From Enterobacteria phage CUS-3: a stretch of DNA of 2,827 bases. The notes beneath the pieces were generated by a model. It had not been told where the DNA came from. It ran no database searches and saw nothing but the letters and a program-made list of their open reading frames with translations. The translations under genes were made by a program, and so were the position numbers. The stretch lies in the sequence record FN394988.1; one strand, 5' to 3'. Shown here one piece after another: positions 1-1,762 of this stretch; positions within the stretch are counted from its first letter, which is position 1; the number at the start of each line of letters is the position of its first letter.

Positions 1-543
1 ATGGCGCGCCCAACAAAGTATCAAGAGGCGTATGCCGAACAGGCACGCAAACTGTGCTTGCTGGGCTACACCGATGCAGAGCTTGCTGATTTCTTCGAAG
101 TCAGTGAGTCAACTATTAACAAGTGGAAGCTTGATTATCCTGAGTTTTCGGAGTCCATAAAAAAGGGTAAGGCCGTCGCTGATGCAGAAGTTAGTGACCG
201 TCTTTATCAACGCGCTATGGGCTTCGTGGCTCCAGACATCGATATTCGTGTTATTGAAAACAGAATTGTCGAAACTCCTCTTGAGAAGTATTACCCGCCT
301 GATACAACAGCTGCCATCTTCTGGCTTAAGAACCGACAGAAGGATAAATGGCGCGACAAGGTTGATCACGAGCTAACAGGCAAAGACGGCGGCGCAATCC
401 AGATTGAAACATCACCGATGAGTACTCTATTCGGAAAANNNNNNNNNNNNNNNNNNNNNNNNNNNNNNNNNNNNNNNNNNNNNNNNNNNNNNNNNNNNNN
501 NNNNNNNNNNNNNNNNNNNNNNNNNNNNNNNNNNNNNNTCTGA
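1..543 (+). CDS. Phage terminase small subunit (TerS, HTH-containing DNA-recognition subunit); 146 codons readable (1-438), 3' end lost in N run
   Basis: ATG at 1 in frame +1; translation MARPTKYQEAYAEQARKLCLLGYTDAELADFFEVSESTINKWKLDYPEF...AAIFWLKNRQKDKWRDKVDHELTGKDGGAIQIETSPMSTLFGK. The N-terminal RPTKY...helix-turn-helix...W(K/L)xxxPEF pattern and the FWLKNR...WRDK motif are characteristic of enterobacterial phage small terminase subunits (recalled family pattern, not searched). The stop at 541-543 lies beyond the N run, so the true 3' end is not established. Confidence 0.7.
   Translation: MARPTKYQEAYAEQARKLCLLGYTDAELADFFEVSESTINKWKLDYPEFSESIKKGKAVADAEVSDRLYQRAMGFVAPDIDIRVIENRIVETPLEKYYPPDTTAAIFWLKNRQKDKWRDKVDHELTGKDGGAIQIETSPMSTLFGKXXXXXXXXXXXXXXXXXXXXXXXXXXXXXXXXXX
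67..129 (+). other. Predicted helix-turn-helix DNA-binding motif within TerS (residues ~23-43, YTDAELADFFEVSESTINKWK)
   Basis: Helix, short turn, then recognition helix ending in a conserved Trp, at the N-terminus as in small terminase DNA-binding domains. Assigned by eye. Confidence 0.45.
439..538. other. Run of 100 N (assembly gap of conventional unknown length, or mask)
   Basis: Counted directly; exactly 100 N, not a multiple of 3. Confidence 0.99.
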
Positions 544-1762
544 GCCATGTGTAAAATATTATGATGGCATTCTGTATCTGACGACCAGGGGGACATTAAG
601 TACTCAACCCGGTAGTTCATTGCACAGAAGCTCTGATTTAGGTACATCATGGAATTCTCTTCGCTTCCCAAATAATGTTCATCACTCAAACCTTCCTTTT
701 GCCAAAGTTGGCGATGAGCTGATTATTTTTGGCAGTGAGCGCGCATTTGGTGAGTGGGAAGGAGGAGAACCTGATAACCGTTATGCAGGAAACTATCCAA
801 GAACATTTATGACCAGAGTTAACGTCAATGAGTGGAGTCTGGATAATGTAGAGTGGGTTAATGTTACTGATCAGATTTATCAGGGCGGAATAGTTAACTC
901 TGCGGTTGGTGTTGGTTCAGTTTGTATCAAAGACAACTGGCTGTACTACATTTTCGGTGGGGAAGACTTTCTAAACCCATGGAGCATAGGGGATAACAAC
1001 AGAAAATATCCTTATGTTCACGATGGTCACNNNNNNNNNNNNNNNNNNNNNNNNNNNNNNNNNNNNNNNNNNNNNNNNNNNNNNNNNNNNNNNNNNNNNN
1101 NNNNNNNNNNNNNNNNNNNNNNNNNNNNNNNNNNNNNNNNNNNNNNNNNNNNNNNNNNNNNNNNNNNNNNNNNNNNNNNNNNNNNNNNNNNNNNNNNNNN
1201 NNNNNNNNNNNNNNNNNNNNNNNNNNNNNNNNNNNNNNNNNNNNNNNNNNNNNNNNNNNNNNNNNNNNNNNNNNNNNNNNNNNNNNNNNNNNNNNNNNNN
1301 NNNNNNNNNNNNNNNNNNNNNAGCGGCGGTGAAACAACGTCTTCAGCAGATGGTGCAATGATAACGTTGCATGGTTCCGGAAGCAGTACTCCACGTCGCG
1401 CGGTATATAACGCACTCGAACATCTTTTTGAGAACGGAGATGTTAAACCTTATCTTGATAATGTAAATGCTCTTGGTGGTCCGGGAAACAGGTTCTCGAT
1501 AGTTTATCTTGGCTCCAATCCTGTGGTTACCAGTGACGGAACATTAAAGACAGAGCCGGTCTCTCCTGACGAAACATTGCTGGATGCCTGGGGTGACGTC
1601 AGGTATATCGCTTATAAATGGCTGAACGCTGTCGCTATAAAGGGGGAAGAAGGGGCGAGGATACATCATGGTGTAATCGCGCAGCAACTTCGTGATGTTC
1701 TTATTTCTCACGGACTCATGGAAGAAGAAAGCACAACATGCCGCTATGCCTTTCTTTGCTAT
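542..1762 (+). CDS. Tailspike/tail fiber with sialidase-like beta-propeller segment and C-terminal intramolecular chaperone (Peptidase_S74) domain; endosialidase-like; partial at both ends, interrupted by N run 1031-1321
   Basis: Frame +2 has no stop in 542-1030 (EPCVKYYDGILYLTTRGTLSTQPGSSLHRSSDLGTSWNSLRF...NWLYYIFGGEDFLNPWSIGDNNRKYPYVHDGH) or 1322-1762 (SGGETTSSADGAMITLHGSGSS...NPVVTSDGTLKTEPVSPDETLLDAWGDVRYIAYKWLNAVAIKGEEGARIHHGVIAQQLRDVLISHGLMEEESTTCRYAFLCY). First block has an Asp-box (SSDLGTSW). Second block matches the S74 pattern S-D-x-x-L-K ... Y-x-W-K/L ... G-x-I-A-Q. No start codon is visible: the first in-frame ATG is at 809, well inside the domain. Confidence 0.6.
629..652 (+). 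other. Asp-box (BNR) motif S-x-D-x-G-x-[ST]-W, hallmark of sialidase-fold beta-propellers
   Basis: Codons agc tct gat tta ggt aca tca tgg = SSDLGTSW in frame +2. Confidence 0.6.
1031..1321. other. Run of 291 N inside the tailspike reading frame (97 codons if length is literal)
   Basis: Counted directly; 291 = 3 x 97, and frame +2 is open on both sides. Confidence 0.99.
1532..1552 (+). other. Predicted autoproteolytic maturation site of the S74 intramolecular chaperone domain (SDGTLKT; cleavage expected after the Ser)
   Basis: In S74-domain tail fibers and endosialidases the C-terminal chaperone is released by cleavage at a conserved Ser in an S-D-x-R/x-L-K motif; SDGTLKT sits at the expected distance upstream of the YKW and GVIAQ motifs. 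Confidence 0.45.

Follow-up and report, generated by a model that had tools for sequence, protein, structure and literature searches.

Why should the gene for a phage small terminase subunit lie only 100 nucleotides from the middle of a tailspike gene? The window (the whole 2,827-nt stretch of DNA analysed here) opens with the terminase gene terS at positions 1–438, continues as 100 N, and resumes inside a tailspike gene at 539–1030. A first-pass annotation of the sequence had described this arrangement, and the open reading frames, together with matches to PHROG 309 and PF12217, confirmed it. Expecting terS of a P22-like phage to be followed by genes for the large terminase subunit (terL), the portal and the head, that annotation offered three explanations: that the 100 N is a placeholder between blocks that are either not adjacent or mis-ordered, which it ranked first; that a deletion fused the packaging and tailspike regions of a degraded prophage; or that the DNA is a satellite or tailocin-like remnant. 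The pattern of sequence split by N runs on past the 1–1030 span on which these proposals were based, with a second tailspike piece at 1322–1762 and neuO at 2180–2827. In its entirety the window comprises four sequence blocks (1–438, 539–1030, 1322–1762 and 2180–2827), with exactly 100, 291 and 417 N between them. On the evidence set out below, the adjacency of terS and the tailspike gene is almost certainly an artefact of a multi-locus typing record in which four separately sequenced gene fragments of phage CUS-3 were concatenated.

Using megablast against the phage collection, we found the window to be identical to FN394986.1 in every base and every N (100% identity over the four blocks, at the same coordinates, over 2827 nt). 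This record is titled 'Enterobacteria phage CUS-3 partial proviral terminase gene, siaK1 gene and neuO gene, genotype GT_2', gives its host as Escherichia coli Delta-1, serovar K1, and carries four CDS features flagged as partial, whose edges are exactly the edges of the blocks. The same search returned at least 16 further 'CUS-3' records of 2827 nt from other K1 strains, with 98.1–99.9% identity and the same four features. For one of these siblings, FN394994.1 (strain IMT_5155, genotype GT_10), we checked the entry directly, and its feature coordinates and N runs are identical to those of the window. The series to which the window belongs is thus the product of multi-locus genotyping and not of assembly. 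We also considered whether the N runs were masking added at a later stage and ruled this out, as the deposited record is equally long and bears partial-CDS flags at the N edges. By INSDC convention, a gap whose length is unknown is written as 100 N.

Block 1 (1–438, plus strand) is an ATG-initiated open reading frame of 146 codons that constitutes the complete terS coding sequence minus its stop codon (146 aa). Its product matched PHROG 309, 'terminase small subunit' (E=2e-68), and a Pfam scan of terS returned no family at E<=0.001. The block is 100% identical to positions 22705–22268 of the CUS-3 genome (CP000711), annotated there as 'phage terminase small subunit', and in CP000711 the last A of terS is the A of the terL ATG, an ATGA overlap that places terL directly downstream. 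The family match and the position of the gene, upstream of and overlapping terL, together point to a small terminase subunit of the Sf6 gp1-like type, as judged from sequence comparison. In the closed genomes of IMT5155, UTI89 and G749, PGAP names the terS product 'hypothetical protein'. Klebsiella phage phiKp_30 and E. coli phage N7 also carry this terS DNA, at 97–98.6% identity.

Blocks 2 and 3 both derive from siaK1. CUS-3 is a P22-like temperate phage found integrated at argW in E. coli K1, and the endosialidase that forms its tailspike breaks down the polysialic acid capsule (PMC13001214; PMC9659370). The first siaK1 fragment (539–1030, plus strand; 100% to CP000711 4013–3522) is open throughout and lacks both a start and a stop codon, its GenBank CDS is partial at both ends, and it matched positions 192–355 of the 367 positions of PF12217 (End_beta_propel; E=1.6e-104). 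It corresponds to residues 487–650 of the 981-aa CUS-3 SiaK1 protein, which are part of the catalytic beta-propeller. A gap of 291 N (1031–1321) stands in for residues 651–747, and the second fragment (1322–1762, plus strand; 99.8% to CP000711 3230–2790) encodes residues 748–894, covering the end of the stalk domain and the start of the C-terminal intramolecular chaperone, with matches to PF12219 (End_tail_spike; E=1.2e-32) and PF13884 (Peptidase_S74; E=1.4e-11). All three parts expected of an endosialidase tailspike, namely the catalytic beta-propeller, the stalk domain and the S74 intramolecular chaperone at the C-terminus, are represented among the fragments. The only difference between the whole window and CUS-3 of strain RS218 falls in the second fragment, at window position 1379, where G in place of A gives Gly instead of Arg at SiaK1 residue 767. 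The IMT5155 typing record agrees with RS218 at this position, and G749, whose siaK1-neuO region matches blocks 2–4 of the window at 100.0%, presumably shares the window base.

The last N run (417 N; 1763–2179) covers the last 264 nt of siaK1, stop codon included, and the 153-nt intergenic region between siaK1 and neuO, equivalent to the 417 nt of CP000711 2789–2373. Block 4 (2180–2827, plus strand) holds neuO from its ATG to its last sense codon, a TAA following the last window base, and the body of the gene (2185–2827) is 100% identical to neuO of CP000711 (2234–1592), where it lies downstream of siaK1. A Pfam Hexapep match (E=4e-11) marks the product, NeuO, as an acyltransferase of the hexapeptide (left-handed beta-helix) type. 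Where RS218 reads ATGTT-(AAGACTC)x19-GTTTTCC, the 5' (AAGACTC)n heptanucleotide repeat (VNTR) is absent from the window, and ATGTT is joined to GTTTTCC between positions 2184 and 2185. The G+C content of neuO is 36%, as against 42–47% for terS and siaK1; this low value, in a gene at the end of the prophage, fits with a horizontally acquired cargo ('moron') gene.

To relate the N runs to real distances we mapped the blocks on CP000711, the 40,207-bp genome of CUS-3, which resides as a prophage at argW in RS218, a K1 strain of E. coli. All four blocks fall on the minus strand (22705–22268, 4013–3522, 3230–2790 and 2234–1592), are collinear, and keep the order that they have in the window. Within siaK1, the 291 N of the window correspond to a distance of 291 bp in CP000711. 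Between siaK1 and neuO, 417 N correspond to 555 bp, which is the sum of 417, the 5 nt of ATGTT that open block 4, and the 133-nt (AAGACTC)x19 VNTR of RS218. Because 291 N equals the reference distance and 417 N fits the 555 bp, these two gaps were sized to the reference. Between terS and the first siaK1 block, the 100 N at 439–538 correspond to 18,254 bp. The N runs are therefore placeholders, two of reference size (291 and 417) and one of conventional size (100), and do not represent true adjacency. Behind the 100 N lie terL, the portal, scaffold, coat and head-completion genes, the genes for three ejection proteins, the immI region (mnt/arc and ant), and the 5' 1458 nt of siaK1, that is, its first 486 codons.

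The annotated order in CP000711 is terS, terL, portal, scaffold and coat, with ant, siaK1, the neuO repeat and int following further on. The gene order of CUS-3 is thus canonical for a P22-like phage: terS precedes terL, portal, scaffold and coat, and the tailspike gene is distal, beside int and the att site. The annotation's guess that the DNA was P22-like was borne out, CUS-3 being classified in the genus Lederbergvirus. The P22-like late order is present in CP000711 as well as in the IMT5155, UTI89 and G749 chromosomes, and it is absent from the window as that DNA is outside the record.

The mapping bears directly on the proposal that the window represents a compact satellite or tailocin-like element carrying only terS, a tailspike gene and neuO. 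Some phage satellites do carry their own terS, and the superficial gene content of the window is compatible with such an element. However, the four blocks are 99.8–100% identical to, and collinear with, a complete P22-like phage of 40.2 kb, FN394986.1 is itself titled 'partial proviral', and no compact element of this kind occurs in any of the 5,426 complete E. coli genomes. This explanation went unsupported and is in effect refuted by the mapping, and we regard it as vanishingly improbable.

A second possibility is that unrelated contigs were joined during assembly by a 100-N spacer, perhaps in the wrong order or orientation. Scaffolders also emit spacers of 100 N, but the blocks follow the prophage in order and strand, the entry is a targeted one of 2,827 nt whose block boundaries are gene-exact, two of whose N runs have the reference size and from which a VNTR was excised, and the layout is repeated at identical length in at least 17 strains. 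A mis-scaffold is exceedingly improbable on this evidence; what the first-pass annotation had suspected to be one is instead a deliberate concatenation of sequenced fragments, as the block edges and the two sized N runs indicate. Its favoured explanation is supported, with this refinement and one other. The 100 N is indeed a placeholder between blocks that are not adjacent, but these blocks are not mis-ordered, their order and strand being those of the prophage. The order and orientation in the record are right, and the spacing alone is fictitious.

Closed E. coli chromosomes gave the same picture as the RS218 phage. The distance from the terS block to the first siaK1 block is 18,254 bp in UTI89, as in CUS-3 of RS218, 20,754 bp in avian pathogenic strain (APEC) IMT5155 (NZ_CP005930) and 16,377 bp in G749, so that the 100 N takes the place of ~16–21 kb of phage DNA. 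In all three, terL and portal directly follow terS, and the tailspike gene is succeeded by neuO, intS and a tRNA-Arg gene (argW). Comparison with a closed genome had been proposed in the first-pass annotation as a check on the junction, and IMT5155, being the strain of a sibling record, allowed us to make this comparison within one strain. The IMT5155 chromosome carries the private SNPs of FN394994.1, namely ATGTC rather than ATGTT, GAGCACTCTGTTCGG in terS and GGATCAGGTAATATT in neuO. Where the typing record of this strain has 100 N and no repeats, its closed genome has 20,754 bp and 18 repeats.

The tailspike gene of IMT5155 is itself split near its 5' end by an IS66-family element (tnpA/tnpB/tnpC; NZ_CP005930 496272–498584), which lies within the 20,754 bp. 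Because of this interruption, the CUS-3 prophage of IMT5155 probably cannot make functional virions, though its neuO is in frame with 18 repeats. Among the E. coli genomes, MS8345, SF-088 and SCU-125 have the siaK1 block without a second match for terS (hits H28, H34, H44 and H62), and the only annotation that their tailspike bears is 'endosialidase catalytic beta-propeller domain-containing protein'. Such strains may carry decayed or recombinant CUS-3-like prophages.

Could Delta-1 nonetheless harbour a degraded CUS-3 prophage in which a real, large deletion left terS no more than ~100 nt from the interior of the tailspike gene? CUS-3-like prophages are prone to decay and loss of content in some strains (PMC9659370), the IMT5155 tailspike is interrupted by an IS66 element, and the closed genomes that we compared belong to strains other than Delta-1. 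Against this, the same 100 N stands at the same coordinates in all sibling records checked, including that of IMT5155, for which the closed genome gives the true interval. Exactly 100 N carries no length information, and the block edges fall where the terS coding sequence ends and, in siaK1, at arbitrary positions that keep the frame, as would be expected of trimmed amplicons. Moreover, terL and portal follow terS in every related closed genome examined. Although 638–648 of the 5,426 complete E. coli genomes match the window, none of the 5,426 has terS and the siaK1 block joined in one match, where pieces up to about 1–2 kb apart would be joined, and by the same measure no phage genome record in the phage collection has them joined. 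A deletion that fused the packaging and tailspike regions is accordingly unsupported, and we consider it highly improbable. Somewhat more broadly, the Delta-1 prophage could be a decayed remnant that has lost much of the morphogenesis DNA between terS and siaK1, with the 100 N hiding a real, shortened junction; this too is very unlikely, and, if true, the Delta-1 remnant would be one more degraded prophage of the kind already described for CUS-3-like elements. As CUS-3-like prophages have been reported to decay (PMC9659370), the interval in Delta-1 need not be exactly 18 kb, the lengths given here being those of RS218, UTI89, IMT5155 and G749.

The explanation that we favour, a concatenated typing record, accounts for the window as follows. 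The terS gene, two pieces of siaK1 and neuO were sequenced apart and joined end to end in the order and orientation of the prophage. The two gaps of the siaK1-neuO region were filled with as many N as the reference phage has nucleotides there (291 and 417), and the long interval between terS and siaK1 was exchanged for the conventional 100-N marker of an unknown length. From the 5' end of neuO the variable heptanucleotide repeat was taken out to make all the records alignable. In the prophage itself, terS is followed by terL, portal, scaffold, coat, head-completion and ejection genes and immI, with the tailspike gene 16–21 kb downstream, by neuO, int and the argW site. Judging from the layout and title of the record and from the strain names, the fragments are most likely PCR amplicons from the work of Mordhorst et al. 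2009, reportedly a population study of CUS-3 and neuO, to which PMC13001214 refers.

The removal of the repeat has consequences for how neuO in such records is read. The gene is a cargo gene whose product O-acetylates the capsule, slippage of its 5' AAGACTC repeat switches it on and off, and it is fully translated only when the repeat copy number is divisible by three (PMC13001214; PMC9659370). RS218 has 19 copies (out of frame) and IMT5155 has 18 (in frame), and the IMT5155 typing record has 0. The repeat-free neuO is an editing artefact of the record, from which the VNTR was cut out. Because the VNTR was excised, as the 18 copies in the IMT5155 genome and their absence from its record attest, the 216-aa 'NeuO' encoded in the window is no natural allele, and the record does not reveal the phase state of neuO in Delta-1. 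Among the closed genomes the siaK1-neuO match spans 2380–2618 nt, in line with a variable repeat copy number. In UTI89 (positions 22097–22432 of the extracted region) and G749 (positions 22181–22516 of the extracted region), PGAP assigns neuO only a 336-nt 'acyltransferase' open reading frame, consistent with phase-OFF repeat numbers that truncate the annotated gene.

The biology behind the window is not novel: the CUS-3 prophage, its endosialidase tailspike and the phase-variable neuO, a cargo gene for superinfection and capsule modification, are already well described. The value of the analysis lies in quality control only. Typing concatenates spaced by N sit in phage collections under phage taxonomy, where they may be taken for fused genes, an unusual gene order, a compact element or, in the case of neuO, an allele without repeats. 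If FN394218 and FN394986–FN395002 are flagged, such false positives in genome scans are prevented.

Set beside known systems, each part of the window has a clear counterpart. The C-terminal 38 residues of TerS (...GKDGGAIQIETSPMSTLFGK) are nearly identical to those of the small terminase of Sf6, gp1 (PDB 3HEF/4DYC; E about 5e-11), whereas the N-terminal ~108 residues, the DNA-binding part in Sf6 gp1, gave no alignment to 3HEF/4DYC at the sensitivity used. With only its last 38 residues aligning to Sf6 gp1, terS looks mosaic. The Sf6 gp1 gene also lies immediately upstream of terL, as terS does in CUS-3, both phages being P22-like. With the K1-specific endosialidase tailspikes of the K1F/K1E type the window shares End_beta_propel, End_tail_spike and Peptidase_S74, each strongly matched and arranged as expected; unlike those tailspikes, it holds two interior fragments only, and neither the 3' end nor the head-binding N-terminus of P22 type is in the record. 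Compared with CUS-3 itself (CP000711), the window has 18,254 bp replaced by 100 N, 291 and 417 nt represented by sized N, and the 133-nt (AAGACTC)x19 gone, yet terS, SiaK1 residues 487–650 and neuO after the repeat are 100% identical and all four blocks keep their order and strand. The sibling typing records FN394218 and FN394987–FN395002 (genotypes such as GT_10) have the same 2827-nt length and the same four-block layout, and differ from the window by the allelic SNPs that define the genotypes.
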